Positions 28,590-50,823 of a DNA stretch of 64,000 nucleotides are shown piece by piece. A program made the position numbers and the translations under genes. How positions within the stretch are numbered: the stretch's first letter is position 1; every line of letters starts with the position of its first letter. The notes beneath the pieces were generated by a model, which was not told the origin of the DNA, ran no database searches, and saw only the letters and a list, made by a program, of their open reading frames with translations. The DNA comes from Syntrophaceae bacterium UBA2280 (GTDB lineage: Bacteria > Desulfobacterota > Syntrophia > Syntrophales > Smithellaceae), in NCBI GenBank assembly GCA_002347685.1, contig DDWS01000004.1:64360-128359 (forward strand), in the 5' to 3' direction.

Positions 28590-28601
28590 GGAGGTGGTGT
28601 T

Positions 28602-29816
28602 ATGGCTTCAGGAATCAGAGATAAAGTCGCTATTATCGGCATGGGATGCAGCCGGTTCGGAGAGCGATGGGATATAGGAGCCGAGGGGCTGATGGTGGAG
28701 GCCTTTCAGGAAGCGCTTGTGGATGCAGGCCTTGAAACGAAGGATATCCAGGCGGCCTGGTACGGGGTTTGTATGGATGAGGTCAATGTAGGCAAGGGAG
28801 CTCCGTCGATGAGTATGGCCCTTCGTCTGCCCAACATTCCCGTTTCCAGAATGGAAAACTATTGCGCCACGGGCACGGAAGCGTTTCGCGGCGCCGTCTA
28901 TGGTGTCGCGTCCGGTGCCTATGATATTTGTCTGGCCCTTGGCGTTGAGAAGTTGAAGGATACAGGGTACGGAGGTCTCCCTGCATGGGGGTCAACGGCG
29001 GGAACCCTCATGTGGCAGTTCTTTCCCAATGCGACGGCGCCGGGACTTTTTGCCCAGCTTGCTTCTGCCTATGTCGCCAAATACAAGATTCAAAATGAGG
29101 ACATCAAACAGGCCATCGCCCATGTCTCGGTGAAAAGCCACGCGAATGGTGCTTTGAATCCCAAGGCTCATTTGCGGAAAGTGGTTACCATGGATCAGGT
29201 TCTGGCGGCCCCGATCATCGCCTGGCCTTTAGGATTGTTCGACTGTTGCGGTGTCAGCGACGGTTCGGCCTGTGCCATTGTGACAACACCGGAAATCGCC
29301 CAGAAACTGGGCAGAAAAAAGAAAGACCTGGTTACGGTCAAGGCCGTTCAGCTGTCTGTCAGCAATGGTTATGAAGGTAGCTTCAATGAATGGGACGGAA
29401 CGAATTTCGTCACCACGGACAAATGTGCGACAGCCACCTATAAGGAAGCCGGAATCACGAACCCGCGAGAGGAGATCAGCATGTTCGAATGTCATGACTG
29501 TTTCTCCATCACGGAACTCGTGACGTATGAGGATCTCCACCTCTCCGAGCGGGGCCAGGCCTGGAAAGATGCTTTAAACGGCATGTACGACCGGGACGGT
29601 AAAATCCCGGCCCAGATCGATGGAGGCCTCAAGTGTTTCGGACACCCCATCGGGGCCTCGGGGCTGCGGATGATTTATGAAATGTACCTGCAGCTTCAGG
29701 GACGGGCGGACAAGCGTCAGCTCGAAAATCCGCGCTACGGTTTGACACACAACCTGGGTGGTTTCCCTCACCAGAACGTGTGCGCTATTTCCATCGTAGG
29801 AATGTATGGAAAGTAA
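28602..29816 (+). CDS. SCPx-type thiolase (lipid-transfer-protein-like thiolase, Ltp family)
   Basis: It has the nucleophile context MENYCATGTEAF and the C-terminal segments GGLKCFGHPIGASG and NLGG. Such thiolases typically partner with DUF35 proteins. Confidence 0.9.
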   Translation: MASGIRDKVAIIGMGCSRFGERWDIGAEGLMVEAFQEALVDAGLETKDIQAAWYGVCMDEVNVGKGAPSMSMALRLPNIPVSRMENYCATGTEAFRGAVYGVASGAYDICLALGVEKLKDTGYGGLPAWGSTAGTLMWQFFPNATAPGLFAQLASAYVAKYKIQNEDIKQAIAHVSVKSHANGALNPKAHLRKVVTMDQVLAAPIIAWPLGLFDCCGVSDGSACAIVTTPEIAQKLGRKKKDLVTVKAVQLSVSNGYEGSFNEWDGTNFVTTDKCATATYKEAGITNPREEISMFECHDCFSITELVTYEDLHLSERGQAWKDALNGMYDRDGKIPAQIDGGLKCFGHPIGASGLRMIYEMYLQLQGRADKRQLENPRYGLTHNLGGFPHQNVCAISIVGMYGK

Positions 29817-29842
29817 TACTGCATGACGCGGATGATCCCTGT

Positions 29843-29882
29843 GCCGCGGAGGTGGTGGAGCCGCTTCCTTCACCTCTGCGGC
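29843..29882 (+). other. GC-rich hairpin (GCCGCGGAGGTG / CACCTCTGCGGC, 11 of 12 bp) without a U-tract
   Basis: Read directly from the 140-bp gap between the thiolase and the acyl-CoA dehydrogenase. Confidence 0.5.
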
Positions 29883-29957
29883 ATCCTCCGACAGGATCAG
29901 TTTCTGCGGAGATGTCGGAAGCGTCATGACAATGAATGTTGACGAGGAGACAGATTG

Positions 29958-31100
29958 ATGGATATTATCAAATACACGGATGAACACCGAATGTTCCGGG
30001 ATACTTTTCGGAAATTCGTTACGAATGAACTGCTTCCCCATGTCGAGGAATGGGAAGAGGCCGGTATTGTTCCCAAAAGCGCCTGGAAGAAAATGGGGGA
30101 GCACGGATTTCTGGGCATGTCCGTTCCGGTGGAATACGGCGGCGCGGGAGCGGATTTTCTGTATTCGGTGATTGTCACCGAAGAATTGTCGCATTCAAAT
30201 TTTGCGGGACTTGCGGCCCCCCTGCATACCGATATCGTTGTCCCTTACCTCATTTCCTTCGGTTCTGAAGAGCAGAAGCATAAATATCTTCCCGGTTGCG
30301 TCACCGGAGATATCATCACGGCGGTGGCTATGACGGAACCCAATACCGGCAGCGACCTTGCCGCTATTAAAATGACAGCTGTGGAGGACGGAAATGACTT
30401 TGTCCTGAATGGCCAGAAAACCTTTATCAGCAACGGAATCAATTGTGATCTGTGCATTGTGGCGGCAAAAGATCCGGCAGGTACTGACCCCCATAAGGCG
30501 GTGGATCTTTACATTGTGGAGGCCGGTACTCCCGGCTTTGAGAAGGGCAGGCAGATTAAAAAAGCCGGCTGGCACAGCCAGGATACGTCCGAGCTGTATT
30601 TCACGGACTGCAGGATTCCCAAAGGTAACCGTCTGGGCGAAAAGGGGACCGGGTTTGTGAAGCTTATGATGAAGCTTCAACAGGAGCGTCTGGTTGTTGC
30701 CATCTGTGGCATTGCGGCCGCCGAATACATGCTGGAGACAACCATCAAGTATTGCCGGGAACGGACGGTTTTCGGAAAGCCCGTCTCCAAGTTTCAGGTC
30801 AATCAGTTCACCCTTGTGGAAATCGCCACGGAGATCCGGATCGGTCGGACCTTTGTCGACAAGCTGATTGTGGATCATATGGAGGGACAGCAGGTCATTA
30901 TCGAGACGTCGATGGCTAAATACTGGATCACGGACATGGCCCACCAGGTTGCGGACAGATGCCTGCAACTGCATGGAGGGTATGGGTACTGCGATGAATA
31001 CGGGATTTCGCGGGCCTGGCGCGACAGCCGGGTGAGCCGGATCTTCGCCGGAACCAATGAAATCATGAAAGTTATTATTGCCCGGTTTATGGGATTATAA
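29958..31100 (+). CDS. acyl-CoA dehydrogenase (about 380 aa, short/medium/branched-chain type)
   Basis: It has AMTEPNTGSD, FISNG and LHGGYGY motifs. ATG 29958 sits 7 nt after GAGGAGA. Confidence 0.9.
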   Translation: MDIIKYTDEHRMFRDTFRKFVTNELLPHVEEWEEAGIVPKSAWKKMGEHGFLGMSVPVEYGGAGADFLYSVIVTEELSHSNFAGLAAPLHTDIVVPYLISFGSEEQKHKYLPGCVTGDIITAVAMTEPNTGSDLAAIKMTAVEDGNDFVLNGQKTFISNGINCDLCIVAAKDPAGTDPHKAVDLYIVEAGTPGFEKGRQIKKAGWHSQDTSELYFTDCRIPKGNRLGEKGTGFVKLMMKLQQERLVVAICGIAAAEYMLETTIKYCRERTVFGKPVSKFQVNQFTLVEIATEIRIGRTFVDKLIVDHMEGQQVIIETSMAKYWITDMAHQVADRCLQLHGGYGYCDEYGISRAWRDSRVSRIFAGTNEIMKVIIARFMGL

Positions 31101-31110
31101 AGGGGGGAAT

Positions 31111-32292
31111 GTGCCCGGACCACTTGAAGGATTGAAAATTCTCGACTTTACGACTCTTTTGCCGGGGCCATATGCAACCATGACCCTTGCCGATTTGGGG
31201 GCGGATGTCCTATCTGTCGTTTCAGGAAGCCGGCCCGACTTGGCTGCTATCACGCCGCCGTTCATCACAGGAACGGACTTGTCCGTTGCATCGGCTTATC
31301 TGGGTCGTGGGAAGATGTCCATTACGCTCAACCTGAAAGATTCGCGGGCTATACAGATCATCAATCGTCTTCTGGGGGAGTATGACATTCTCATTGAGCA
31401 GTTCCGTCCGGGGGTGATGTCGAAGTTCGGCTTGGGCTTTTCCCAGATCGGGGAGAAATACCCGTCCCTGATCTATTGCTCCCTGACGGGATATGGCCAG
31501 ACGGGACCGCTGAAAGACAGAGCGGGTCACGACATCAATTATTTATCCCTCTCGGGACTCATGAGCTATGCGGGGCGCAAAGAAGGCGGGCCCGTTCCTA
31601 TGCCCATGCAGATTGCCGATGTGGCTTCGGGGTCGAATAGTGCAATCATCGCCATCCTGGCCGCAGTCATCCACAGGCAGAAGACAGGGAAGGGACAACA
31701 TCTCGACATATCCATGACGGACGGGGTTTTCGCTTTCAATGCCCTGGCCGCTGCGGCTTGTCTGGCGGCAGGCGAAATCCCGGAAAGGGAGGGTTTTATC
31801 CTCAATGGTGGGTCCCTTTACGATTTTTATAAGACGGCGGACAACCAATATCTGGGGTTCGGGGGCATGGAACCGCAGTTCTTTGCCGCCTTCTGCCAGG
31901 CGATCGGGCGTCCCGATTTGATTGCCGGCGGGTTTATGCCGCCGGATCTGTCCAGGGTTAAGGAGGAGATACGGACTGTGATCCGCGGGAAAACCAAGGC
32001 GGAATGGGAACGCATTTTCGACAAGGTGGAAGCCTGCGTAGAACCGGTGATTTCTCTGCCGGAGGCAATGAACAGCGCTCTGGCCAGGGAACGGGGATGG
32101 ACGGTTGAGGTCACTTTACCCGATGGAGGCACCGTGAGGCAGCCGACTTGTCCCTTCAAATTTTCAGCAACGCCCGTTGCGTACGGTAATACGGGCGTAA
32201 AGGCAGGAACGCACAACAGGAAGGTTTTCCTTGATCTGGGATATGGCGAGGAAGAGATCGATGAATTCCAGAGGACAGGACTTCTTTCGTGA
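31111..32292 (+). CDS. family III CoA-transferase (CaiB/BaiF) / alpha-methylacyl-CoA racemase-like
   Basis: GPLEGLKILDFTTLLPGPYATMTLADLGADV and GHDINYL are typical of the family. GTG 31111 is preceded by AAGGGGGG. Confidence 0.85.
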   Translation: MPGPLEGLKILDFTTLLPGPYATMTLADLGADVLSVVSGSRPDLAAITPPFITGTDLSVASAYLGRGKMSITLNLKDSRAIQIINRLLGEYDILIEQFRPGVMSKFGLGFSQIGEKYPSLIYCSLTGYGQTGPLKDRAGHDINYLSLSGLMSYAGRKEGGPVPMPMQIADVASGSNSAIIAILAAVIHRQKTGKGQHLDISMTDGVFAFNALAAAACLAAGEIPEREGFILNGGSLYDFYKTADNQYLGFGGMEPQFFAAFCQAIGRPDLIAGGFMPPDLSRVKEEIRTVIRGKTKAEWERIFDKVEACVEPVISLPEAMNSALARERGWTVEVTLPDGGTVRQPTCPFKFSATPVAYGNTGVKAGTHNRKVFLDLGYGEEEIDEFQRTGLLS

Positions 32293-32339
32293 TGATGATA
32301 CTCTGAAAATTTTTTTTACCATTAAAATGGGAGGTTATT

Positions 32340-32813
32340 ATGGCAGACAAAACAAAAGCAGGGATGGTGTTTCCCCCTTATACCTTTGAGGTGGAAAAGG
32401 GAAAGATCGCCGAGTTCGCTATGGCCGTTTCGCAGAAGGAGAGCAAGGGCCAGGTGAAACAAATTTATGCCGATTCCGGGAAGGCAAAGGAGGCGGGTTA
32501 CACGGATATTGTTCCAACGTCCACGTTTCAAACATGCTTTTTGCTCTGGGGGGGTGGGGGATTGATGCCCATGCTGCAGGACGTCGGTATCGACCTGGTC
32601 AGGCTGCTTCATGGTGAGGAAGAGTATGAATATCTGCTCCCCATTCATCCGGGCGATGTCATGACCGGGGTTACCAAGGTTGTCGAGATGTATGACAAGG
32701 AGAAGAAGGGCAAGCCGGGGAAATTCATGGAGTTTACTGTTCTGGAAGCGGAAATCAGAAATCAGCGTGGGGAACTGGCGATTCGCGCCCGCACAACTTT
32801 AGTGGAGAGATAG
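32340..32813 (+). CDS. MaoC-N / FAS1-like hotdog subunit (non-catalytic half of a heteromeric R-hydratase)
   Basis: It has hot-dog fold length. YTFEVEKGKIAEFA....LLHGEEEYEY resembles ChsH1/HadA-type partners. Confidence 0.7.
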   Translation: MADKTKAGMVFPPYTFEVEKGKIAEFAMAVSQKESKGQVKQIYADSGKAKEAGYTDIVPTSTFQTCFLLWGGGGLMPMLQDVGIDLVRLLHGEEEYEYLLPIHPGDVMTGVTKVVEMYDKEKKGKPGKFMEFTVLEAEIRNQRGELAIRARTTLVER

Positions 32814-32822
32814 GAGGAGGCC

Positions 32823-33275
32823 ATGACGAAAACATTAACGTATGAGAGTATATCCGTTGGCGACGCGATGCCGACATTTATATCGGATCCCATTACCCGG
32901 ACCCATCTGGTCCGCTATGCCGGAGCATCGGGAGACTTCAATCCCCTCCACCATGATGAGACGTTTGTCAAGCTGTTCGGGATGCCGCGGGTGATTTCTC
33001 ACGGGATGTTCGTGATGGGTATCGTCGGGCAGGCCATCACGGATTGGATCGATGACAAAAATTTGCGTAAATTCGGCGTTCGGTTTTCCGGAATGACGGA
33101 ACCCATGGATATGGATGACCAGAATTCAAAGGAGAGAGCAACGATCGTCGTAACCGGCACGGTGGTTGAAAAGTATGAGATCGACGGAGAGAAAGTAATG
33201 CGTTGCGAAATCAATGCAGCGGACAAACAAGGAAGCGTGAAACTGACGGGATCCTTTGTTGCGGCTCTGTCGTAA
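32823..33275 (+). CDS. MaoC-like (R)-specific enoyl-CoA hydratase subunit
   Basis: It has the hydratase-2 motif RYAGASGDFNPLHHDE....G....ISHGM. Confidence 0.85.
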   Translation: MTKTLTYESISVGDAMPTFISDPITRTHLVRYAGASGDFNPLHHDETFVKLFGMPRVISHGMFVMGIVGQAITDWIDDKNLRKFGVRFSGMTEPMDMDDQNSKERATIVVTGTVVEKYEIDGEKVMRCEINAADKQGSVKLTGSFVAALS

Positions 33276-33290
33276 AAAAGATCACATGAA

Positions 33291-33317
33291 CCGCTCCCGG
33301 CAACTTACCGGGAGCGG
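33291..33317 (+). terminator. 10-bp perfect GC-rich hairpin (CCGCTCCCGG caactta CCGGGAGCGG) with a weak U-tract
   Basis: Read directly, 16 nt after the MaoC stop codon. Confidence 0.4.
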
Positions 33318-33721
33318 CATGATTTACAGGAATGACCATGTCGAAGTTCTTTCCTCTCGAACGGTTGAGTGCGGGATACTTCCTGAGGATGCCGGCATCT
33401 CTTTTCCTGCTGCTGTTGGAAAGAATACCCAAAGAGGCAAAGCAAATGTTGGGGATATGGGATCGAAATTAAAAGCAACGGTATTTCATCAAGCATGTCC
33501 TGCTGGAAGTGGACGCAGCGGTCACATCCATCAAGAGCGAGGATCTCTCGATGGTCGATATTCCAGAAGAAAGTTTTGCTGTTTAGAATTAGACAGATGT
33601 CGTTTATCGTCGATGGCAGTTTCTTGACCATTTGATTATCCGATCATGTCCGGCATCATCGATATCCGGGGGAAGACAGGCATGATCATCAAACAGACGA
33701 TTCTTGAGGAGAACATGATAA

Positions 33722-34171
33722 ATGATTGAGGAAAAGTATCAAGAGCATGTCAAAATGCTTTCGACCATCGTCAAGATCATCGAAAAAATGGGCATCCGTA
33801 TCGTGGAGATGCGGGATCGCTATGTCAAGGTTCTTTTGCCGCTTGAGCCAAACATCAACCATATCGGGACGATCTATGCCGGTTCTCTCTTTTCGGTAGG
33901 CGAGTATATTGCCGGCCCGATTTTTGTTGCTTCTTTTGATTATACAAAATTCTATCCCATCGTCAAAGCCATCAACGTCCAATTCTGCCGACCGGCAACA
34001 ACAGATGTGACGGTGGAAGTGATGCTGAGTGAGGCCGAGGCCGATGCCATCCAGCGTGAGGTTGAAGCAAAGGGGAAGGCCGACTGGAAAATGGATCTGG
34101 AAGTCAAGAACCAGGCCGGGGAGATTTGCTGTCTCCTCCAAGGGGTATGGCAACTGAGAAAATGGAAGTGA
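33722..34171 (+). CDS. hotdog-fold thioesterase (YiiD C-terminal / PaaI-like)
   Basis: Its size and the segment LPLEPN.NHIGTIYAGSLFSVGEY fit the family. Assigned from memory of the family pattern only. Confidence 0.6.
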   Translation: MIEEKYQEHVKMLSTIVKIIEKMGIRIVEMRDRYVKVLLPLEPNINHIGTIYAGSLFSVGEYIAGPIFVASFDYTKFYPIVKAINVQFCRPATTDVTVEVMLSEAEADAIQREVEAKGKADWKMDLEVKNQAGEICCLLQGVWQLRKWK

Positions 34172-34273
34172 CAACTGCACGGTGGTCAGGACCGCAAGAG
34201 CCTTCGCTGCGAATGCAGAAACTAGTTTTTAAATCTAGACCTATTATTACATGACTCTTGAGGAGGTTAGACA

Positions 34274-36172
34274 TTGAGCAATATGAAATATGCAGACGTA
34301 TACAAGCAATCCATTAGTGAGCCGGAAATCTTCTGGGGAAAAGCTGCCGAGGCCATCTCCTGGACAAAAAAATGGGACAAGGTTTTGGACGACAGCAACA
34401 AGCCCTTCTACCGGTGGTTTGCCGGCGGCGAATTAAATACCTGCTATAACGCCCTGGACTACCATGTGGAAAAGGGCCGGAAAGATCAGACCGCCGTTAT
34501 CTACGACAGCCCCGTCACCGATACGGTAAGAAAGATCACCTACGGCGAGCTCCTGGATGAAGTCTCGCGGTTTGCCGGCGCCCTTTCCGCAATCGGCATC
34601 AAAAAAGGCGACACGGTCATTATCTACATGCCGATGATTCCCGAAGCGCTGACCGCGGTGCTGGCCTGTGCGCGCATCGGCGCCGTGCATTCCGTCGTCT
34701 TCGGCGGATTCGCGCCCAATGAACTGGCCATCAGGATTGACGACGCCAGGCCTAAAGTCATGGTTTCCGCCTCCTGCGGAATCGAAGGGAAGAAAACCAT
34801 TGCCTACAAACCGCTGTTGGATGAAGCCATCAAACTGGCTGCGCACAAACCGGAAAAATGCGTGATCTTCCAGCGGCCGCAGGTCCCGGCCGATCTGCAG
34901 CCCGGACGGGATCTCGACTGGAATGCTTTTGTAAAGGATGCCAAACCCGCCGCCTGTGTCCCTGTTGCAGCCACCGACCCGCTCTATATCCTTTACACCT
35001 CGGGAACCACCGGCAAGCCTAAAGGGGTTGTACGTGACAACGGCGGCCATGCCGTGGCCCTGAAATGGTCGATGAAGAATATTTATGATGTGAAACCCGG
35101 CGAGGTTTTCTGGGCGGCCTCCGATGTCGGCTGGGTGGTGGGCCACTCCTACATCATCTATGCACCGCTGCTCTATGGCTGCACAACGATTGTTTATGAG
35201 GGGAAACCCGTGGGGACCCCCGATCCCGGCGCCTTCTGGCGGGTCATTTCCCAGCATGGCGTGTCCGTTTTGTTTACGGCTCCCACGGCGTTTCGCGCCA
35301 TTAAAAAGGAAGACCCCCAGGGCGATTACCTGAAGAAATACGACATTCGCTGCTTGAAATACCTTTTCCTGGCCGGCGAGCGCCTTGACACCGACACGTA
35401 TCACTGGGCCGGCGATATACTGAAGATTTCCGTAGTCGATCATTGGTGGCAGACCGAAACCGGCTGGCCGATCGCCGCCAACTGTATGGGAATCGAACCT
35501 CTTCCGATCAAAGCAGGATCGCCCACCAAACCGGTCCCCGGCTATCATGTCCAGATTCTGGATATGGACGGGGACCCCCTCCCCAACGGCCAGGAGGGAT
35601 CCGTTGTGATCAAGTTGCCGCTCCCTCCCGGCTGCCTGCCCACGCTGTGGCAGGATGACAAGCGTTATCTGGAATATGTAAACGAAAGACCGGGTTATTA
35701 CGTGACCGGTGACGGCGGGCGTTTTGACACCGATGGCTATCTCTTTATCATGGGACGCATCGATGATGTGATCAACGTGGCCGGCCACAGGCTTTCCACA
35801 GGATCGATGGAAGAAATCGTATCCAGGCATAAGGATGTCGCGGAATGCGCCGTCCTGGGCGCGGATGATCAACTCAAGGGCCAGGTGCCCGTTGGTTTTG
35901 TTGTTTTAAAGGCCGGCGTGGATCGCAAGCCCGAAGAGATTATCGCGGAGCTGGTAAAGATGGTGCGCAATGAACTGGGTGCGCTGGCCTGCTTCAAGGA
36001 AGCCGCTGTGGTCAAGGCGCTGCCCAAGACGAGATCCGGCAAGATCCTGCGCTCGACCATGCGCAAGATCGTCGACGGCAAGGATTATGTGGTGCCGTCC
36101 ACCATTGATGATCCGGCAGTCTTGGGATTGATTGCTCAATCAGCTAAAACGATCGGCTACGGAAAAAAATGA
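34274..36172 (+). CDS. propionyl-CoA/acetyl-CoA synthetase family enzyme (PrpE-like)
   Basis: The N-terminus (Y.QSI.EPE.FWG.AA..I.W...W..VLD.....F.RWF.GGELN.CYNALD.HV) plus YTSGTTGKPKGV and GHR.ST.E.E are typical. TTG 34274 sits 7 nt after GAGGAGG. Confidence 0.85.
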   Translation: MSNMKYADVYKQSISEPEIFWGKAAEAISWTKKWDKVLDDSNKPFYRWFAGGELNTCYNALDYHVEKGRKDQTAVIYDSPVTDTVRKITYGELLDEVSRFAGALSAIGIKKGDTVIIYMPMIPEALTAVLACARIGAVHSVVFGGFAPNELAIRIDDARPKVMVSASCGIEGKKTIAYKPLLDEAIKLAAHKPEKCVIFQRPQVPADLQPGRDLDWNAFVKDAKPAACVPVAATDPLYILYTSGTTGKPKGVVRDNGGHAVALKWSMKNIYDVKPGEVFWAASDVGWVVGHSYIIYAPLLYGCTTIVYEGKPVGTPDPGAFWRVISQHGVSVLFTAPTAFRAIKKEDPQGDYLKKYDIRCLKYLFLAGERLDTDTYHWAGDILKISVVDHWWQTETGWPIAANCMGIEPLPIKAGSPTKPVPGYHVQILDMDGDPLPNGQEGSVVIKLPLPPGCLPTLWQDDKRYLEYVNERPGYYVTGDGGRFDTDGYLFIMGRIDDVINVAGHRLSTGSMEEIVSRHKDVAECAVLGADDQLKGQVPVGFVVLKAGVDRKPEEIIAELVKMVRNELGALACFKEAAVVKALPKTRSGKILRSTMRKIVDGKDYVVPSTIDDPAVLGLIAQSAKTIGYGKK

Positions 36173-41255: not shown

Positions 41256-42122
41256 TTGAGCGGCGATGATCATCAGGAAAAATTGGCGCATTCTATGTTG
41301 ATGAACAATTATGAACTCAAGAACAGTGATTTCGAAAAAATCAGCCGTCTGATTTACGAGCAGTGCGGTATTCACCTGCATGAAGGGAAAAAGGAACTGG
41401 TGAAGGCGCGCTTGAGCAAAAGACTTCGCGCGGGCAGCTATACATCTTTTTCAGATTATTACAAATACGTCACTACACAGGAAGGATCGGATGAATTGAT
41501 CGCGATGATCGATTCCATCTCGACCAATCTAACGTCATTTTTTCGCGAAGCAAGTCATTTTGTCCGTCTGCAGAATATCATCGCCACGGCGGTCGAAAAA
41601 TCAGGCCAGAAGAAAGCAGTGTTTCACGTCTGGTCCGCGGGGTGTTCCACAGGTGAAGAACCTTATACACTTGCGATCACGTTCAGGGAGGCCGCGTCTC
41701 ACCATCACTTTGAAGCATCCATCCTGGCTACGGACATATCCACGAAAGTTTTGAAAATCGCTGAAAAAGGCGTTTATGGCAAAGAAAGGATCAAGGGCGT
41801 TGCAGTTCCCCTTCTGAAAAAGTATTTTCAGCAGGGTACCGGTCAGTCGGAAGGGAATGTGCGCGTTAAAAGCGAACTCCGGGGTATGGTCACTTTTAAA
41901 AGATTCAACCTGATGGATCGTTTTCAGGACAGTCACCATTTCGATTTCATCTTTTGCCGTAACGTTATGATCTATTTCGATAAAAAAACGCAAAACGTAC
42001 TGGTCAACAAGTTTTATGATTCGCTCAAAAGCGGCGGTTACTTCTTCGTGGGGCACTCTGAAAGTTTAACCGGTTTGCAACATTCATTCAAATACGTGGA
42101 GCCGAGTGTTTATCTGAAATAA
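41256..42122 (+). CDS. cheR: chemotaxis protein methyltransferase CheR
   Basis: The motifs are F..I..LIYE..GI.L...K..LV..RL..R, SFFRE and VWSAGCSTGEEPY. The start is uncertain (TTG 41256, ATG 41295 or 41301). Confidence 0.9.
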   Translation: MSGDDHQEKLAHSMLMNNYELKNSDFEKISRLIYEQCGIHLHEGKKELVKARLSKRLRAGSYTSFSDYYKYVTTQEGSDELIAMIDSISTNLTSFFREASHFVRLQNIIATAVEKSGQKKAVFHVWSAGCSTGEEPYTLAITFREAASHHHFEASILATDISTKVLKIAEKGVYGKERIKGVAVPLLKKYFQQGTGQSEGNVRVKSELRGMVTFKRFNLMDRFQDSHHFDFIFCRNVMIYFDKKTQNVLVNKFYDSLKSGGYFFVGHSESLTGLQHSFKYVEPSVYLK

Positions 42123-42124
42123 CT

Positions 42125-42607
42125 ATGGGCGATTTGATTGTTGGAATATCTGATCTTAAGATCAGCAATAATGATAACGATGTGATTGTGACGTATGCAT
42201 TGGGGTCCTGTATCGGCATATCTGTTTTTGATCCGGTCGCCAAAGTGGGGGGGATGCTCCATTACATGCTTCCGGAATCTTCGCTGGACGAAAAAAAGGC
42301 AAGGGAAAATCCGGCGATGTTTGCGGATACCGGCATTCCGCTGCTGTTTAAGTCCTGCTATCAATTGGGTGCGGATAAAAAACGCATGATTGTCCGCGCG
42401 GCAGGCGGCGCGAGCATTCTGGATGACACCAATTTTTTTCGTATCGGACAAAAGAACATTATGGCGATGAGAAAGATATTCTGGAAAAACAACGTGATGA
42501 TTACCAGCGAGGATACGGGCGCAAATCACAACCGCACTGTACGCCTGCAGATCGCAACCGGTAAAACCTACGTTCGCACGGCCGGAGGTGAAATGAAGGA
42601 ACTATGA
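42125..42607 (+). CDS. cheD: chemoreceptor glutamine deamidase CheD
   Basis: ALGSCIGI...D.....GGM.HYMLP and GG...N.TV.L....G are typical of CheD. Confidence 0.85.
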   Translation: MGDLIVGISDLKISNNDNDVIVTYALGSCIGISVFDPVAKVGGMLHYMLPESSLDEKKARENPAMFADTGIPLLFKSCYQLGADKKRMIVRAAGGASILDDTNFFRIGQKNIMAMRKIFWKNNVMITSEDTGANHNRTVRLQIATGKTYVRTAGGEMKEL

Positions 42608-43455
42608 AAGCTGTCAACCGCATTCTAAAATCGATCAATACGATTCCGGCATTTCCGGCTACGGGGAATAAAGTTTCCCAGTTACTCAACCGGATTGATT
42701 ATTCCGTATCCGAAGTGACCAATGTCATCCGGTTTGATCCGTCGATTACCGCCAATCTCCTCAAGATGGCCAATTCCGCCTATTTCAGCCCACAGCACAA
42801 AATCAGCACGATCAATGATGCGGTGATTTATCTGGGGCAGAAGAATCTGCTTTTGGCAATCCAGACAGCCGGGATTTCCAAGTATTATAAAAAGGGTTCT
42901 TCCGGCTATTTTGACAAGGCGACGGATTTGTGGGAGCATTCCGTGGCCGTCGCGCTGATGTCGCAGATTCTATCCAGGAAGATAACCGGCGAGGAAAATA
43001 CGACTCTTTACACCGCCGCGCTGCTGCATGATGTCGGGAAAATTATCATGGGTGAGTTTGTTCGTGACGAAATGCAAAAAATAACCATGCTGGTTGAAGA
43101 ACAGCATATGTCCTTTCTGGAAGCGGAGGAACTGGTTTTAGGGATCAATCATGCCGATCTGGGCGGTAAAATTGCCGAACACTGGAACTTTCCGGTAGAA
43201 ATTCGCGATGCGATTTCCTATCATCACCGGCCGGACCTGCTGGAAAAGGAAGACAAGATCATGCCCTGGATCGTCTACATGGCTGATGAAGCCTGCCTGA
43301 TGATGGGAATCGGCAGCGGGGTGGAAGGTTTGGCTCAGCGTGCGGTGAGTGAGCTTTTAAAGAAATTCAATTTGCGGATGAGGGACCTTGAGATGAGCAT
43401 GGTTTTGCTGTCGGACGATTTAAAACGTGCCCGGGAAGTCATCAGCATTGTTTAG
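42604..43455 (+). CDS. HDOD-domain signalling protein
   Basis: The motifs are P.FPA.......LL...D.S..EV..VI..DPS.TANLLK.ANSAYF, ALLHDVGK and NHADLGGKIAEHWNFP. Confidence 0.8.
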   Translation: MKAVNRILKSINTIPAFPATGNKVSQLLNRIDYSVSEVTNVIRFDPSITANLLKMANSAYFSPQHKISTINDAVIYLGQKNLLLAIQTAGISKYYKKGSSGYFDKATDLWEHSVAVALMSQILSRKITGEENTTLYTAALLHDVGKIIMGEFVRDEMQKITMLVEEQHMSFLEAEELVLGINHADLGGKIAEHWNFPVEIRDAISYHHRPDLLEKEDKIMPWIVYMADEACLMMGIGSGVEGLAQRAVSELLKKFNLRMRDLEMSMVLLSDDLKRAREVISIV

Positions 43456-43488: not shown

Positions 43489-43920
43489 ATGTCATTCAAT
43501 GTTTTGATTGTGGATGATTCAGGCTCGATGAGGGCGGTGATTAAGAAAATCATCACGATTTCCGGGTTTCATATGGATAACTGCCATGAGGCGGGAAACG
43601 GCAGGGAGGCGCTGACGCTGCTGGAGGACCACTGGGTGGATGTGATTATTTCCGATATCAATATGCCGGAAATCAACGGCCTGGAATTGCTCGATGCACT
43701 CAAACGCAATGAAACCCTCAAGGAAATTCCGGTGATCATGATAACAACCGAAGGTTCTGAAGAGCGCATGAAAGAAGCCTTCGCGCGCGGGGCGAAAGGA
43801 TTTATAAAAAAACCCTTTTTGCCGGAACAGATTCGAAAAGTTCTCTATGATGTGATAGGAGTGGGTGAAGATGGGAGATATGAAGAAAATCCAAGAAATG
43901 ATGATGAACTCGATTTTTGA
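43489..43920 (+). CDS. CheY-like single-domain response regulator
   Basis: The motifs are VLIVDDS..MR......DVIISDINMP..NGLE and KKPF. Confidence 0.85.
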   Translation: MSFNVLIVDDSGSMRAVIKKIITISGFHMDNCHEAGNGREALTLLEDHWVDVIISDINMPEINGLELLDALKRNETLKEIPVIMITTEGSEERMKEAFARGAKGFIKKPFLPEQIRKVLYDVIGVGEDGRYEENPRNDDELDF

Positions 43921-44311
43921 TGTCTATGAAAAGATGTTCTTCGTTTTTCTGGAACCGGTGGATGAGGACATCCGCTATGACATGGCCACATCTATCCGTT
44001 TCACCGGTCCGCTCAAGGGCGAACTGACAGCCTTCATCAGCGAAAGAATGGCCGTCAGCATGGTGGAGAATATGCTTGGCCTGGAGAAACAGGAAGTGAC
44101 CCAAAAGCATATGGAAGATTGTGCGAAGGAATCCATTAATATGATTTGCGGTCATTTTCTCAACAAACTCGATCCGTCAAAGGTATTTGATCTGTCGATT
44201 CCTGAATATGAAAAAAGGGCAGGTATTTTCAAAAAGGAGGATTTGGCGACGCTCAACATCGCGTTTGACTCCGACGGAGATATGATGGGTATTTCCATGA
44301 CGATTTCATAG
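43865..44311 (+). CDS. cheX: CheX-family chemotaxis phosphatase
   Basis: Its size and the segment ...EDCAKESINMICGHFL fit the CheX family. It overlaps the upstream gene, and the true start may be 43871-43904. Confidence 0.65.
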   Translation: MKMGDMKKIQEMMMNSIFDVYEKMFFVFLEPVDEDIRYDMATSIRFTGPLKGELTAFISERMAVSMVENMLGLEKQEVTQKHMEDCAKESINMICGHFLNKLDPSKVFDLSIPEYEKRAGIFKKEDLATLNIAFDSDGDMMGISMTIS

Positions 44312-44364: not shown

Positions 44365-45414
<1,050 letters not shown>

Positions 45415-45416
45415 CT

Positions 45417-47627
45417 ATGCATTATGATGAATTAATTTCGTTGTTGAATAAGCTGGCCCAGGAGTATCTTTTTCTCGACAGTCGAGAACTGGATATCTCC
45501 ACGTCGGGCAGGCTCCTCAATCATCTGGAACTCATTGTCGATGAGGCCAAAAAACAAAAAGTGGCTTCCATGAAGACCTGTGCCGATAGTCTGAGCCAGA
45601 TTCTGGAAAATGTCATCCTCGACACGATCAAGGATAAGGAAAACGCGGCCAGGGTATTTGAAGGCGGTATTCATCTGATGCAGGAGATCGCCGACAGTTT
45701 CAAAAACACAGGAAACTATCAGGGAAGCATCAAGGAATTTCTGGAAAAAACAAGCGCCGTCGCGGGTGTTGCCAGCAGCCGCGACTCTCAAGGCAATGCC
45801 TTAGGCCAAGTGCCGGCTGCGGACGCAGCGGAGGCTACCGTTACAAAGGAGTTTCAAATACAGGATGAGTCGCTCACCCGTGATTTTATCGCAGAAGGGC
45901 TCGAATACATCGAAGAGATTGAGATCAATATTCTGAACCTGGAAAATGAGCCGGAGAACAAAGATTATATCAACGCCATTTTCCGGCCGTTTCACTCCAT
46001 CAAAGGCGTGGCCAGTTTCCTCAACCTCGAAAAAATCAGAGCGCTTGCACACAATCTGGAGAGCCTGCTCGACAAGGCCCGAAACGGCGAGATCGACGTT
46101 ACACCCGCCCTGATTGATGTGGTTCTCGACGGCGCCGACGCGCTCAAAGCACTGATCGGCCAGTTGAGGGATGTGCTCGAAGGCAGGAAGACCCCGGCGG
46201 TTGACCTTGATATTCCGTCATTAGAATCAAGAATTCATAAAGTCGAACAAGGGTTTGATATCCAGGCAGGCGGGAAAAAGATCGGCGAAATCCTCGTTGA
46301 TGACGGTATTATCTCTCAGGAAAAACTCGAACAGACACTAAGCAAGGAGATGACCGGCGGCAAGAAAATCGGTCAGACGCTCATTGAAGAGGGTGTTGTT
46401 AAGCCCAAACAGGTTTCCCAGGCGCTGCGTAAACAGGTAGATCAGGTCACGGATTTGACCACAATCCGTGTGGATACGATAAAACTCGATGATTTGATCG
46501 ATATGGTAGGCGAGCTGGTTATCACCCAGACGATGATTTCCAGAGATTTGAGGAATCAGGTCAACGCCGATAAGAGGCTGGTTCGTGACATCTCACAGTT
46601 TTTCCGGATTACCTCCGCTTTGCAGCGTGTGTCAACCACTCTGAGGATGATTCCCATCAAGCAAACGTTTCAACGCATGTCCCGTTTGGTCAGGGACCTG
46701 GCCAAAAATGCAGGAAAGAACGTTTCGGTGGAGATGGTCGGCGAAGATACGGAAATCGATCGCAATATGGTCGATGAAATCTATAATCCGCTGGTGCACA
46801 TGATCCGCAATTCCGTGGATCACGGACTGGAAACGCCGGAAGAACGGATCAAGGCAGGTAAATCCGAAAGATGTGTGATTACACTGAAGGCCTATCACCG
46901 CGGCGGCAATATCGTGATTGAAATCGGCGATGACGGCCGGGGACTCGATCGGCAGAAAATTCTTGAAAAATCCATCAAAGCCGGGCACATTCAGCGTGAC
47001 GACACGCTTACGGATCAGGAAATATACAGACTGATCTTTCTGCCCGGTCTGTCCACGGCGGAAAAGGTGACCGATGTGTCCGGCCGCGGAGTCGGCATGG
47101 ATGTGGTCAAACGCGCTGTGGAAAAACTTCGCGGTAAAATTGAAATTGAAAGCACTGTTGGAGAAGGCACGATTTTTACTACGCGTTTTCCTCTGACTCT
47201 GGCCATTATCGACGGCATGATTGTCAAAGTCGGCAATGAAAGCTACATCATCCCGACGACCGCCATCCGCCAGGCGCTTCGTCCGCCACGTGAAACCTAT
47301 AATAATGTTGTCGGAAGGGGTGAGACGATTCATGCGATGGGACATCTTATGCCTTTGATTCGCATGTATGATCTGTTTGACATCGAACCGGAATACAAAG
47401 ATCCCTGGGATGCCATTGTGGTTGTGGTCGAAGGGGAAGCAGGTTCGCGGTGTCTGATGGTGGATAAAATCATCGGCAAAACCGAAGTGGTGGTTAAAAG
47501 CCTGGGCGAGAGCTTAAAAAACATCAGAGGTCTGGCCGGTGGCGCGATCCTGGGTAACGGACGGGTCGGATTGATCATTGATACGGAAGGTTTATTCGAG
47601 TTGGCGGAAGATCGATCATTGCAGTAG
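45417..47627 (+). CDS. cheA: chemotaxis histidine kinase CheA (N-terminal extension, Hpt, MshEN-like insert in place of P2, dimerisation, HATPase, CheW-like P5)
   Basis: FRPFHSIKG marks the Hpt histidine, TIRVD..KLD.L.D.VGELVI marks P3, N.VDHG/DDGRG/GRGVGMD marks the ATPase, and a C-terminal CheW-like domain follows. An alternative GTG start is at 45411. Confidence 0.9.
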   Translation: MHYDELISLLNKLAQEYLFLDSRELDISTSGRLLNHLELIVDEAKKQKVASMKTCADSLSQILENVILDTIKDKENAARVFEGGIHLMQEIADSFKNTGNYQGSIKEFLEKTSAVAGVASSRDSQGNALGQVPAADAAEATVTKEFQIQDESLTRDFIAEGLEYIEEIEINILNLENEPENKDYINAIFRPFHSIKGVASFLNLEKIRALAHNLESLLDKARNGEIDVTPALIDVVLDGADALKALIGQLRDVLEGRKTPAVDLDIPSLESRIHKVEQGFDIQAGGKKIGEILVDDGIISQEKLEQTLSKEMTGGKKIGQTLIEEGVVKPKQVSQALRKQVDQVTDLTTIRVDTIKLDDLIDMVGELVITQTMISRDLRNQVNADKRLVRDISQFFRITSALQRVSTTLRMIPIKQTFQRMSRLVRDLAKNAGKNVSVEMVGEDTEIDRNMVDEIYNPLVHMIRNSVDHGLETPEERIKAGKSERCVITLKAYHRGGNIVIEIGDDGRGLDRQKILEKSIKAGHIQRDDTLTDQEIYRLIFLPGLSTAEKVTDVSGRGVGMDVVKRAVEKLRGKIEIESTVGEGTIFTTRFPLTLAIIDGMIVKVGNESYIIPTTAIRQALRPPRETYNNVVGRGETIHAMGHLMPLIRMYDLFDIEPEYKDPWDAIVVVVEGEAGSRCLMVDKIIGKTEVVVKSLGESLKNIRGLAGGAILGNGRVGLIIDTEGLFELAEDRSLQ
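46278..46436 (+). other. MshEN/T2SSE_N-like tandem motif inside CheA (24 aa + 5-aa spacer + 24 aa)
   Basis: KIGEILVDDGIISQEKLEQTLSKE-MTGGK-KIGQTLIEEGVVKPKQVSQALRKQ compares well with the consensus RLGxx(LVI)(LVI)xxG(LVI)(LVI)xxxxLxxxLxxQ. Confidence 0.6.
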
Positions 47628-47666: not shown

Positions 47667-48056
47667 ATGAGTGAAAAAAACATCAAAGTATTAATTGTTG
47701 ACGATTTTGCCACAATGAGAAAGGTGGTCCGTAACCTGTTGAAACAGGTCGGGTACGATGACATTGTCGAAGCGGAAGACGGCGTTATGGCACTCAAAGC
47801 GCTCAAGACGCATAAAATCGATTTCATCATTTCCGATTGGAACATGCCGAACATGACGGGTCTGGAACTGCTCAAGGCGGTGCGGGCGGACGCGGAACTG
47901 GCATCAACGCCTTTTCTCATGGTGACGGCTGAAGCGCTTCAGGACAATGTTGTCGCGGCGGTAAAGGCGGGCGTGAATAACTATATCGTAAAGCCGTTTA
48001 CTGCGGAAGTCTTAAATGAAAAAATAAAAAAGATCATGGATAGCATCGGAAAATGA
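47667..48056 (+). CDS. cheY: chemotaxis response regulator CheY
   Basis: The motifs are KVLIVDDFATMRK..RNLL...G...V.EAEDG..AL......DFIISDWNMPNM.GLELLK..R and NNYIVKPF. Confidence 0.9.
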   Translation: MSEKNIKVLIVDDFATMRKVVRNLLKQVGYDDIVEAEDGVMALKALKTHKIDFIISDWNMPNMTGLELLKAVRADAELASTPFLMVTAEALQDNVVAAVKAGVNNYIVKPFTAEVLNEKIKKIMDSIGK

Positions 48057-48088
48057 GATGGCTTCATGATATCGATGAAAGGCAACCT

Positions 48089-48550
48089 ATGAATGTGAAA
48101 TTTATCAACCCGTTTCTGGACGGGACGGTCAGTGTGCTAAAGACGATGGCTTTTGTTGAACCGCGAGCGGCAAAACCTTATTTGAAAGTCGATAATCTGG
48201 CTAAAGGGGATGTCTCCGGAATCATCGGCCTGACCGGATCCGCGACAGGTTCGCTGGCGTTGAGTTTCAGCGAAGCAGCCATTTTGAAAATCGTCTCCAA
48301 CATGCTGGGTGAAAATATCAAGAGTCTCAACAGCGACATTAAGGATGCCGTGGGTGAAATCACCAACATGATCTCCGGAGTGGCCAGAAAGCATCTCGAA
48401 GCGGAAGGCTTTTACATCCAGGCCGCCATTCCGACCGTCGTGTCAGGAAAGGATCACTCCATCACGCATGTGCTGGGCGGGCCGAGTCTCATTATTCCCT
48501 TTGAAATTGATGAGGGAACATTCGTTGTGGATGTGTGTCTAAACGAGTAG
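48089..48550 (+). CDS. cheX: CheX-family chemotaxis phosphatase (second copy)
   Basis: The motifs are INPF.......VL.TM, SGIIGLTG and DAVGEITNMISG.A. The ORF track starts at 48053, but ATG 48089 has a GAAAGG Shine-Dalgarno. Confidence 0.7.
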   Translation: MNVKFINPFLDGTVSVLKTMAFVEPRAAKPYLKVDNLAKGDVSGIIGLTGSATGSLALSFSEAAILKIVSNMLGENIKSLNSDIKDAVGEITNMISGVARKHLEAEGFYIQAAIPTVVSGKDHSITHVLGGPSLIIPFEIDEGTFVVDVCLNE

Positions 48551-48553
48551 CGG

Positions 48554-49381
48554 TCAGTTCTCCGGGTGCAGGACGATGATGCTGATACGCCGGTTGCGCT
48601 GGTCGCGGGGGTCAAGAGGCAAGAGCAGCTCCTGATCGGCATAGCCCACTACTCTGGCGATTCTTGTCGGATCCGTGCCGGATTCTTCTAGGACACGGCG
48701 GGCGGCTGACGCGCGTGATGTGGAAAGCTCCCAGTTGGTGACTTGTCCCCCCCGAAACGGGGCGGCGTCGGTATGCCCTTCCACAACGATTTTGCCGGGT
48801 ATCTGATTCATGTTATCCGCAACCACTTGAAGGATTTCCCTGGCCCTCTGGGTGGGCTTCGCGGAGCCCAGCGGAAACATCATGGAGCCATCCGAGTCGA
48901 TCACCTGGACACGGATACCGCCTTCGATGACGTCCACCAGGACTTGATCACGATATGCGGCCATTTTATCGTCGATAGACGTCCGGATCTTTTTGACCAG
49001 GTCTTCATCACGTGCATCTGTGGTTTGTTTTCCCCTCTTCTGGCCGAATTCCGCCTGACTTTTGCCCCGCACATTTACGGAGGCCAGTGAAGCTGGCTGA
49101 CCGGAGGCATCCTGGGGAAAGCGGGGATCCGTCGCTTTGCTGTCTTTTAGATCCAGGGCCGACGAACCACTTTCCTGAAAAATGCTGTATTTAAGAAAAT
49201 ACTCCGAAACGGCGGCTCTTCTTTCGTCGGAAACCATGCTCAAGAGCCATAACAGAAGGAAAAAAGCCATCATGGCGGTTACAAAGTCGGCATACGCGAC
49301 TTTCCACGAGCCGCCGTGAGCGCCTCCGCCCTTGGCCTTCTTGACTTTCTTGATGATAATTTGCTGTGGACGATCTTCCAT
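48554..49381 (-). CDS. motB: flagellar stator protein MotB (OmpA-like C-terminal domain)
   Basis: It has the plug/TM region GGSWKVAYADFVTAMMAFFLLLW and the C-terminal VEGHTD..P.......NWELS..RA. Confidence 0.85.
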   Translation of the reverse strand: MEDRPQQIIIKKVKKAKGGGAHGGSWKVAYADFVTAMMAFFLLLWLLSMVSDERRAAVSEYFLKYSIFQESGSSALDLKDSKATDPRFPQDASGQPASLASVNVRGKSQAEFGQKRGKQTTDARDEDLVKKIRTSIDDKMAAYRDQVLVDVIEGGIRVQVIDSDGSMMFPLGSAKPTQRAREILQVVADNMNQIPGKIVVEGHTDAAPFRGGQVTNWELSTSRASAARRVLEESGTDPTRIARVVGYADQELLLPLDPRDQRNRRISIIVLHPEN

Positions 49382-49392
49382 AATCCTATGCG

Positions 49393-50271
49393 TTACTTCG
49401 TTTTTGCCTGACTGGTTTTCGCATTGCGCAGTGCGTCTTCCATTTCAAGGAAAGAGGGTTTAACGGAAGACGGGATCACCCGTCGTCCGAATTCCACGGC
49501 CACTTTCGGCGCCGCGCCACCGCCGATGAAGGCCAGAAGCGCCACTTTAATCACGTTTAAGTATTGCAGGTCTTCGTTGGCAATAAATTCCATATTTCTT
49601 GCCATCGGACCCACATATCCATAGCAAAGTAAAACGCCCAGGAATGTCCCGACCAGTGCCGCACCGATACTCGCACCCAGAACTTCAGGCGGTTCCTTGA
49701 TCTTGCCCATGGTTAAAATGACGCCCAGAACCGCCGCGACGATACCGAGTCCGGGAAGCCCGTCGGCGATGACGCCGACACTGTGCGAAGGCGTCATCGC
49801 TTCTTCATGATGGGCCTCGAGTTCCTGATCGATCAATGACTCCAGTTCGTGAGGGGCAATCGTAGTGGTCATGACGGTGCGCAGTGTGTCCGTGATGAGT
49901 TCAATGGCCGCATGATTTTGTAAAACTTTTGGGTACTGGGAGAAAATTGGGCTTTGTTCGGGTTCGTCCACGTCCGATTCGATGGAAACGAGCCCCTGCT
50001 GACGGATTTTATAAAATATGCCGTTGATCATCAAGAGAACTTCAATGTAATCCTGCTTCGTAATCGGTTTGTTGGTAAAAATGCGCGAAATGGAGCCGCC
50101 TACCGCTTTGATGACTTTCAGAGGCGACGCGATGATGAAACCCCCGAGGGCGGCCCCGCCGATGATCATAAATTCCACCGGTTTGAAAATGATGGAAAGA
50201 TTCCCGCCTTCGAGAAGATAGCCGCCGATTACGGCGACCGAAACAATCACAAAACCGATAATGGCAATCAT
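49393..50271 (-). CDS. motA: flagellar stator protein MotA
   Basis: The N-terminus (IIG.VIV...VIGGYLLEGGNL) and the C-terminal TM3/TM4 segment (LPGLGI..AVLGVI.TM....P...LG..I..ALV.TF.G) fit MotA. Confidence 0.9.
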   Translation of the reverse strand: MIAIIGFVIVSVAVIGGYLLEGGNLSIIFKPVEFMIIGGAALGGFIIASPLKVIKAVGGSISRIFTNKPITKQDYIEVLLMINGIFYKIRQQGLVSIESDVDEPEQSPIFSQYPKVLQNHAAIELITDTLRTVMTTTIAPHELESLIDQELEAHHEEAMTPSHSVGVIADGLPGLGIVAAVLGVILTMGKIKEPPEVLGASIGAALVGTFLGVLLCYGYVGPMARNMEFIANEDLQYLNVIKVALLAFIGGGAAPKVAVEFGRRVIPSSVKPSFLEMEDALRNAKTSQAKTK

Positions 50272-50283: not shown

Positions 50284-50823
50284 CTATTTTCTTTTTTCAC
50301 GCAGGATTTCTCTTTCCGTCTCAAAGACAAACTTGATGATTTCATCGCGGACAAAATCATCGATTGCGATAAAGTGCACCGCAGTGTTGTAGTTAGGATG
50401 CGGTACGGCCACATCCACCACTTCCCCGTAGAGAAAGAGTGCCATCGGCCTTTGCATGGTGAGCATAAGCTTGATTTCCAGGATATCACCCGGCTCGAAA
50501 GAGCAGTCGGAAAAAAAACTCATTCCGCCGCCACCAATATTCACTTTCGTCATATTCATACAATGAAACCCGTCTTGCTGAATGGTCATCATGCGGATGA
50601 TTTCATTGAGCTTCAAATTAATCGTCTGAAGCCATTGTGCAATAATCTGATCGTCAGGATTGGGCAAAGACTTGAATTCCGCCAGAAACGAATCCCCCGA
50701 TGTTCTTGATCGCAGTTCTAAACGCCGTTCTTTATCAATTTTCTTAATTTCCACGGGGATATAGATTTCAACGCGTGAATATTCCCGCTTGTTGTCAGAA
50801 TCTGTGATCAGTTCGTCCGTCAT
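50284..50823 (-). CDS. PilZ-domain protein (c-di-GMP receptor candidate) co-transcribed with motAB
   Basis: REYSRV fits the RxxxR motif and NIGGGGMSF fits a D/NxSxxG-type motif. It ends 12 nt upstream of motA. Confidence 0.7.
   Translation of the reverse strand: MTDELITDSDNKREYSRVEIYIPVEIKKIDKERRLELRSRTSGDSFLAEFKSLPNPDDQIIAQWLQTINLKLNEIIRMMTIQQDGFHCMNMTKVNIGGGGMSFFSDCSFEPGDILEIKLMLTMQRPMALFLYGEVVDVAVPHPNYNTAVHFIAIDDFVRDEIIKFVFETEREILREKRK

Follow-up and report, generated by a model that had tools for sequence, protein, structure and literature searches.

The closest described relatives of the element considered here are the MshEN domains of Vibrio cholerae MshE and Thermus thermophilus PilF, which bind cyclic diguanosine monophosphate (c-di-GMP). 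MshE (Protein Data Bank [PDB] entry 5HTL) uses two tandem 24-residue motifs: the glycine at motif position 3 reads the guanine through its backbone amide, and the substitutions G11L and G40I abolish binding; Arg9 stacks on the guanine base via its side-chain atoms; the glutamine at position 24 hydrogen bonds to ribose and phosphate, not to the base; and the affinity shifts by under five-fold when Arg9, Asp12 or Gln32 is changed, but drops by over ten-fold with hydrophobic changes (Wang et al. 2016, PMC5013675). The same work named CheA and CheX among MshEN partners, listing a CheA of Aeromonas veronii (EKB11881) as an MshEN_N-CheA in its Supplementary Table 4 and an (MshEN_N)2-CheX in Geobacter lovleyi. 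Among the domains measured, PilF GSPII-B has the highest affinity (PMC11731258, PMC12207366). Here we describe a chemotaxis kinase, CheA, encoded in a 64,000-nucleotide stretch of Syntrophaceae bacterium UBA2280 (assembly GCA_002347685.1, contig DDWS01000004.1, positions 64,360 to 128,359; hereafter the window). Judged by profile and predicted fold, its residues 290-342 are a true homologue of the MshEN_N module and occupy the place of the CheY-docking P2 domain. We lean towards the view that this module binds c-di-GMP and regulates CheA, which would make it a direct second-messenger input to the kinase.

The product of the open reading frame (ORF) at 45411-47627 is a CheA chemotaxis histidine kinase in which the order P1-P3-P4-P5 is complete and which PDB CheA sequences match at E 1e-104. 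Its features are as follows (window positions; aa, residue numbers).

45411-47627, + strand: cheA, 738 aa; starts with a GTG that overlaps the stop codon of cheB (ORF list; Pfam matches to Hpt, H-kinase_dim, HATPase_c and also CheW)
45426-45764, + strand: extra N-terminal five-helix domain of unknown family, aa 6-118 (AlphaFold)
45867-46181, + strand: P1/Hpt domain, aa 153-257; phospho-acceptor His195 in FRPFHSIKG (Pfam Hpt 156-253, E 1.2e-14)
46182-46277, + strand: linker from P1 to MshEN_N, aa 258-289; one short helix at 268-279, ending Gly-Gly-Lys (AlphaFold)
46278-46349, + strand: MshEN_N motif 1, KIGEILVDDGIISQEKLEQTLSKE, aa 290-313; helices alpha1 and alpha2 (NF053729; in register with MshE residues 9-32)
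46350-46364, + strand: five-residue spacer MTGGK, aa 314-318 (direct sequence reading)
46365-46436, + strand: MshEN_N motif 2, KIGQTLIEEGVVKPKQVSQALRKQ, aa 319-342; helices alpha3 and alpha4 (NF053729; in register with MshE residues 38-61)
46437-46460, + strand: short hinge from MshEN_N to P3, aa 343-350; pLDDT (AlphaFold's per-residue confidence) below 50 at 347-350
46461-46646, + strand: P3 dimerisation domain, aa 351-412 (Pfam H-kinase_dim 350-407; AlphaFold helices 356-378 and 388-412)
46785-47198, + strand: P4 ATP-binding kinase domain, aa 459-596 (Pfam HATPase_c; PDB CheA sequence matches)
47214-47603, + strand: P5 CheW-like coupling domain, aa 602-731 (Pfam CheW 602-731)

The two motifs read KIGEILVDDGIISQEKLEQTLSKE-MTGGK-KIGQTLIEEGVVKPKQVSQALRKQ and map exactly to nucleotides 46278-46436, where the original prediction had placed two 24-residue copies five residues apart. 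The NCBIfam model NF053729 ("c-di-GMP_motif, MshE-related") covers residues 290-342 over all of its 53 positions (1-53) with 51.6 bits against a cut-off of 38, at E-values of 6e-14 for the whole protein and 6.6e-16 for the segment. Compared with PDB sequences by phmmer, a 77-residue segment finds T. thermophilus PilF (E 6e-16) as well as V. cholerae MshE 5HTL (E 2.8e-7). No gaps are needed to align the segment with MshE 5HTL or with the domains of PilF that bind c-di-GMP. In the MshE register, K290, I291, G292, L306, L310 and E313 of motif 1 stand at R9, L10, G11, L25, L29 and Q32, and K319, I320, G321, V335, L339 and Q342 of motif 2 at R38, L39, G40, L54, L58 and Q61. A relaxed form of the motif matches only twice in the window's six-frame ORFs of at least 50 aa (64,230 residues), both times at the CheA copies. 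Because the NF053729 match, the PDB sequence matches and this pair of solitary motif hits agree, the resemblance goes beyond chance.

The module is the N-subdomain only. The Pfam T2SSE_N model (PF05157), suggested as the check on an MshEN identity, was run and has no match in CheA, and the alpha/beta C-subdomain (MshEN_C/T2SSE_N1) was not found; within the module Pfam shows just a weak DUF4388 match, over motif 2, and NF053729 was the informative model. P3 begins eight residues past the end of motif 2 (residue 342 to about 351), with an H-kinase_dim match that opens with TIRVDTIKLDDLIDMVGELV. Since there is no T2SSE_N match and P3 follows after eight residues, we file the segment in the MshEN_N-only category of Wang et al.; a module directly N-terminal to H-kinase_dim is also their MshEN_N-CheA arrangement. 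The proposed identity thus stands for the four-helix MshEN_N subdomain and not for a full MshEN domain. An AlphaFold model of the segment (93 residues, 30-sequence alignment, pLDDT 76.8) shows four helices, after which comes the first helix of P3. The top Foldseek match of this model in the PDB is 5HTL, "MshE with cdg", at a root-mean-square deviation of 1.0 A over 56 columns and a probability of 1.00, followed by the c-di-GMP complexes of PilF GSPII-B (8PFA/8PDK); the deviations range from 1.0 to 1.2 A. The full-length model places the bundle helices at 291-297, 303-313, 320-326 and 332-347. Like MshE, then, the window CheA has tandem 24-residue motifs with a five-residue spacer and a predicted bundle that superposes at 1.0 A; unlike MshE, it lacks MshEN_C/T2SSE_N1 and the secretion ATPase, and its module is internal to a histidine kinase, not N-terminal. 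A local hidden Markov model (HMM) match further aligns CheA residues 289-360 with positions 482-548 of the NfrB glycosyltransferase, whose NCBIfam name, 'cyclic di-3',5'-guanylate-activated', indicates that an enzyme with this domain is annotated as c-di-GMP-controlled; NfrB shares the MshEN-type match but belongs to a different enzyme class and has a full MshEN domain, C-terminal to its catalytic domain.

How well the module might bind may depend on a few departures from the motif. Set against (R/K/L)(L/I/V)Gxx(L/V/I)(L/V/I)xxG(L/V/I)(L/V/I)xxxxLxxxLxxQ, copy 2 fits except for a valine at the first leucine and is accepted by Wang et al.'s relaxed pattern, and copy 1 fits at all positions bar Glu313, which falls outside the relaxed set [QNKRYWST]. 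The position-3 glycine is present in both copies (G292 and G321). The departures already recognised in the original prediction, lysine for arginine at position 1 of both motifs (Lys290 and Lys319) and Glu313 for the glutamine at position 24 of motif 1 (Gln32 in MshE), are correct, and Q342 is kept in motif 2; the further deviation, Val335 at a leucine position, had gone unmentioned. The fear that the arginine-to-lysine changes could abolish binding is answered by PilF. The GSPII-B domain (8PDK, 9GL5; PMC11731258, PMC12207366) naturally has lysine at position 1 of motif 1, as the window CheA does, and binds with a dissociation constant (Kd) of 6 nM, against 150 nM for its K167R mutant; two further lysine-bearing domains bind at 13.5 and 53 nM, and the consensus has been extended to (R/K/L)LG... 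(Neissner et al. 2024). Since the lysine-bearing domain binds more tightly than K167R, lysine at this position is not a defect, and the relaxed search pattern of Wang et al. already allowed [RKPN] there (PMC5013675).

Glu313 is the more consequential change. Its exact counterpart is the engineered PilF mutant Q190E, in which the binding mode is unchanged and the protonated glutamate is hydrogen-bonded to phosphate, with a Kd that falls from about 800 nM (pH 8.5) to about 40 nM (pH 4.5); the glutamate that was engineered in PilF is natural in the window CheA. Unlike the latter, PilF GSPII-B has leucine at position 1 of motif 2, the wild-type glutamine and the context of a type IV pilus ATPase. 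Because Q190E behaves in this way, we infer weaker and pH-sensitive binding: by analogy, the module should probably still bind c-di-GMP, at reduced and pH-dependent affinity owing to Glu313. In PilF, the isolated 64-residue N subdomain is sufficient, binding like the full domain.

Several observations weigh against our reading and belong together. The C-subdomain MshEN_C, which supplies Asp108 in MshE, is absent from the window CheA. The PilF mutant with both glutamines changed to glutamate does not bind at pH 7.5, although only one glutamine is changed in the window CheA. Restoring the consensus in PilF GSPII-A does not make it bind, so that the motif is necessary and not sufficient. Glutamine at position 24 of motif 1 occurs in 84 of 97 members of the wider family, is replaced by Glu313 in the window and is found in just one of 96 close homologues from the Syntrophales clade, which have K, N, S, T or V there (the 96 are the close homologues in which both motifs fit the relaxed pattern); this loss could reflect relaxed or altered ligand binding in the clade. 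The literature search, in which most occurrences of 'CheA' in c-di-GMP reviews turned out to be the author names Chea and Cheang, found no published c-di-GMP binding to any CheA and no effect on CheA activity, in line with the original prediction, which knew of no characterised example of c-di-GMP acting directly on the kinase. The step from c-di-GMP binding to kinase regulation is conjecture. What remains uncertain for the window CheA is thus Glu313 together with the fact that the motif alone does not guarantee binding.

An alternative is that the module is a ligand-independent spacer of MshEN_N fold, or a protein-docking 'landing pad' in the tether between P1 and P3, whose useful affinity for c-di-GMP was lost or never existed. 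PilF GSPII-A and XpsE share the fold and do not bind, and GSPII-A has been proposed to be a landing pad; the motif 1 glutamine is gone in the window CheA and its clade; and spacer and hinge lengths vary. GSPII-A, however, departs from the motif at several key positions (His33, Ser39, Ala41 and Arg62), the window CheA at one. The GSPII-A site is moreover blocked by an N-capped, extended helix alpha1 and by contacts between its subdomains. In the window CheA, Gly-Gly-Lys precedes motif 1, the predicted helix alpha1 starts at 291 and there is no C-subdomain, all of which, as far as the model goes, argues against a block of the GSPII-A type; the Gly-Gly ahead of alpha1 counts against a purely structural role. 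Conservation does so too: the near-invariant residues among 55 CheAs are the ligand contacts (the glycine at position 3 and the glutamine at position 24), and the helix-packing core is not likewise singled out. We regard a role without ligand as unlikely.

That conservation was seen at two depths. In the 120 closest homologues, which are 71-94% identical and 717-754 aa long and some of which are named Smithella, Smithellaceae or Syntrophaceae, the module is kept without exception, and motif 2 is near-invariant (K[IL]GQxLIEEGxVKPKQxSQALRKQ) and as conserved as P3, P4 and P5. The spacer of 'exactly five' residues, considered as a diagnostic mark, was rejected, since its length is not conserved: 80 of the 96 close homologues have six residues, and in the family as a whole the length runs from about 1 to 18. 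The second set comprises 55 full-length CheAs, 29-55% identical to the window protein and each from a different 50%-identity cluster. NF053729 matches all 55. G292 and G321 are among 29 invariant columns, the remainder lying mostly in the catalytic domains; the positions of Q313, Q342, L295, L324 and A338 are at least 90% conserved; and H195 is kept in at least 90%. Lysine is the most frequent residue at position 1 of both motifs in the CheA-linked family, and proline, glycine and serine are abundant at family positions 286-289.

The survey of CheA homologues for the same insert, which the original prediction had called for, showed it to be widespread. Residues 280-410, compared exhaustively by phmmer with 1.84 billion cluster representatives, gave 2018 matches at E <=1e-3 and 189 at E <=1e-10; in 96 of the best 150 the module lies directly before P3, and 54 of these 96 are complete CheAs. 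In many of the complete ones Hpt is present twice, or MshEN_N in two to three copies. At least 153 distinct loci with an MshEN_N-P3 stretch came from two genome scans over species representatives (159 kept, minus six contigs common to both scans and L157, which matched the P3 part of the query only). They carry the names Smithella/Syntrophales, Nitrospira, Planctomycetota, Desulfovibrio, Desulfuromonas, Zixiibacteriota, Omnitrophota, Pseudomonas/Stutzerimonas, Aeromonas, Shewanella, Cellvibrio, Methylobacter, Thiobacillus, Dechloromonas, Zoogloea, Accumulibacter, Actinoplanes and Dactylosporangium. Single-sequence phmmer probes missed the module in most of the distant CheAs at these loci, and an HMM built from 97 family segments detected it in all 80 loci of the first scan. 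The architecture itself was already known, having been listed in 2016 and being the subject of a curated NCBI motif model, and the survey brought up the same family in Aeromonas, Pseudomonas, Dechloromonas, Actinoplanes and others.

Within this family the window CheA represents one type, without P2 and with K.G/K.G motifs and a spacer of 5-6 residues, against the RLG.../PLG... motifs and 10-18-residue spacers of the beta- and gammaproteobacterial CheAs examined. In Pseudomonas/Stutzerimonas, Dechloromonas, Zoogloea and relatives (L029, L041, L051, L056, L073 and others), the MshEN_N-CheA gene lies in cheY-cheA-...-cheR-cheD-cheB clusters. We take these clusters to resemble the Che2 cluster of Pseudomonas aeruginosa. 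The roughly 160 residues between Hpt and MshEN_N in these CheAs have no Pfam P2 match. A literature search on P. aeruginosa CheA2 (PA0178), suspected of carrying the module, in combination with c-di-GMP found nothing relevant, and P. aeruginosa is not among the best 80 loci of the second scan. Among the cluster-representative matches are also unusual proteins of 900-1500 aa (P0126, P0129, P0145, P0136 and P0137), some of which join Hpt to several repeats resembling MshEN_N and to TSP3 or dockerin repeats, others having DUF4388 repeated four to five times. In the Pfam DUF4388 model, positions 47-83 overlap an MshEN_N half-motif, which suggests that the two models describe related helices.

The claim that no normal P2 lies between Hpt and P3 holds: Pfam PF07194 has no match in the window CheA, and residues 258-350 are predicted as helices only in the full-length AlphaFold model (pLDDT 88), so that we regard P2 as absent. 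The landmarks that had been used to frame the segment, FRPFHSIKG and TIRVDTIKLDD, are likewise correct, Pfam assigning them to Hpt and H-kinase_dim. The alignments of PDB CheA chains are confined to P1 and to the part starting at about residue 338, none of those aligned covering an MshEN_N module, and the NCBIfam CheA equivalog scores under its cut-off (417.6 versus 793). At the other end of the protein, the domain at aa 6-118 is predicted with pLDDT mostly above 90 as helices 6-20, 29-48, 52-69, 76-99 and 108-118 and has no match in a Pfam search. We considered and rejected a degenerate P1 copy, as BLASTP found no similarity to the CheA's own P1; many relatives have a second Hpt domain in this place.

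A module in the position of P2 could be a functional replacement for it, docking CheY, CheB or CheX with or without c-di-GMP and setting the phosphotransfer partner rather than the activity of the kinase. P2 is missing in 53 of the 55 family members (a P2 domain occurs in two), the operon has genes for two receivers, for CheB and for two CheX-like products, and MshEN_N is fused to CheX in G. lovleyi. The A. veronii CheA, however, is listed with both a CheY-binding domain and MshEN_N, and with a poorly matching first motif, unlike the window CheA, which has no P2; because that protein has both, neither domain simply stands in for the other. Binding of receiver domains is not known for any MshEN_N domain. 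P2 is, moreover, dispensable for chemotaxis in Escherichia coli, and many CheA classes do without P2 or any replacement. We therefore think a docking role improbable, and somewhat more so than that of a spacer.

We posit instead that c-di-GMP acts through the tether. The place of P2 in this flagellar-type CheA would be taken by a 53-residue MshEN_N four-helix bundle binding one molecule of c-di-GMP. The ligand would be contacted by the backbone amides at Gly292 and Gly321, by stacking of Lys290 and Lys319 and by hydrogen bonds from Gln342, with hydrophobic clusters formed by Ile291/Val335/Leu339 and Ile320/Leu306/Leu310. That the ligand might be another cyclic dinucleotide, such as 3'3'-cyclic GMP-AMP (cGAMP), seems to us very improbable: MshEN binds cGAMP weakly (Kd 3.3e-4 M; PMC5013675), and the altered motif 1 half-site of the clade could change the specificity of the base or phosphate pocket, yet the glycine and the following backbone amides that read guanine O6/N7 are kept in both motifs, the altered residue touches ribose and phosphate rather than the base, and there is no evidence of a cGAMP-specific MshEN.

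Binding of c-di-GMP would order the bundle and stiffen or re-orient the tether between P1 and P3; in PilF, it is described as requiring the unwinding of the first turn of helix alpha1. Because the eight-residue hinge sits just before the P3 dimerisation helix, the module lies close to where P1 must reach P4, and its ordering could alter the reach or orientation of P1 to the P4 ATP site, or the transfer of phosphate to CheY or CheB. At high c-di-GMP the chemotactic output would then be retuned, in either direction, at the kinase itself. Rigid helical coupling from MshEN_N alpha4 to P3 helix 1 was rejected in view of the low-confidence break at 347-350 and a linker whose length differs across the MshEN_N-CheA family; judging from the model, rigid mechanical coupling through the hinge is unlikely, which speaks against that form of our proposal. 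Because the hinge is variable and predicted with low confidence, a tether or steric mechanism is more plausible than rigid transmission. In its full form the proposal, that c-di-GMP binding gates the kinase or phosphotransfer, that a widespread class of P2-less CheAs has its own input, and that Glu313 adds pH dependence in the window's clade, is one that we advance tentatively, as possible rather than probable.

The window locus is a flagellar chemotaxis locus, with flgB, flgC, fliF, fliG and fliI from 56.5 kb on. Around cheA it contains the following genes.

41256-42122, + strand: cheR (Pfam, ORF list)
42125-42607, + strand: cheD (Pfam, ORF list)
42604-43455, + strand: HDOD protein, between cheD and the receiver gene (Pfam, ORF list)
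43489-43920, + strand: receiver protein (Pfam, ORF list)
43865-44311, + strand: cheX-like (Pfam, ORF list)
44386-45414, + strand: cheB (Pfam, ORF list)
47667-48056, + strand: cheY, downstream of cheA (Pfam Response_reg)
48053-48550, + strand: cheX phosphatase (Pfam CheX)
48554-49381, - strand: motB (Pfam MotB_plug/OmpA)
49393-50271, - strand: motA (Pfam MotA_N/MotA_ExbB)
50284-50823, - strand: PilZ-domain protein, 179 aa, directly upstream of the stator genes (Pfam PilZ)

The order cheD-HDOD-receiver-cheB-cheA is kept in six Smithella/Syntrophales loci (L001-L006), with cheR, cheY and cheX flanking wherever the contig reaches; in L017-L019 and L050, too, HDOD genes are found close to those for MshEN_N-CheA. 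As listed, the receiver and cheX-like ORFs overlap by 56 nucleotides, and the true cheX-like start probably lies further downstream. No cheW or chemoreceptor gene was detected beside the che cluster, and a separate CheW-like ORF was not found in the window. The ORFs scanned in the window include no GGDEF, EAL or HD-GYP genes, which counts against a c-di-GMP input here. The PilZ protein has the RxxxR motif (REYSR) and NIGGGG where PilZ usually has D/NxSxxG, and the Smithella loci L003 and L004 share the order PilZ-motA-motB; the protein may be a c-di-GMP effector of the flagellar-brake type and hence, beside motAB, a second candidate c-di-GMP receptor. Elsewhere in the window, a + strand run at 17756-36172 encodes enoyl-CoA hydratase, acyl-CoA dehydrogenases, thiolase, SCP2-fused short-chain dehydrogenases, a family III CoA-transferase and AMP-forming ligases; this beta-oxidation-type run fits a Smithella-type syntroph degrading fatty acids or alkanes.

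The known routes from c-di-GMP to chemotaxis or the motor are PilZ chemoreceptors (Cbp1), MapZ acting on CheR1, PlzC with CheX, and YcgR/FlgZ on the motor. The input proposed here would resemble them in coupling the c-di-GMP level to swimming behaviour, and a PilZ gene stands beside motAB in the window as well; unlike it, all the characterised links that we found act via separate PilZ proteins or domains on receptors, methyltransferase, phosphatase or motor, and none is built into CheA. The idea dates from 2016, so that what the window contributes is one more instance and a better description of the family, not a new concept. The MshEN_N-CheA is a known kind of protein that is experimentally uncharacterised, and its interpretation as a c-di-GMP input is sound as a hypothesis, neither new nor rare. 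According to our survey, the design is common and its ligand-contact residues are under selection, and cultured hosts are available in Stutzerimonas stutzeri, Aeromonas, Dechloromonas denitrificans, Methylobacter tundripaludum, Desulfovibrio and Actinoplanes. If the reading that we favour is true, a binding module within CheA would let the second messenger act at the kinase itself, at the top of the phosphorelay.

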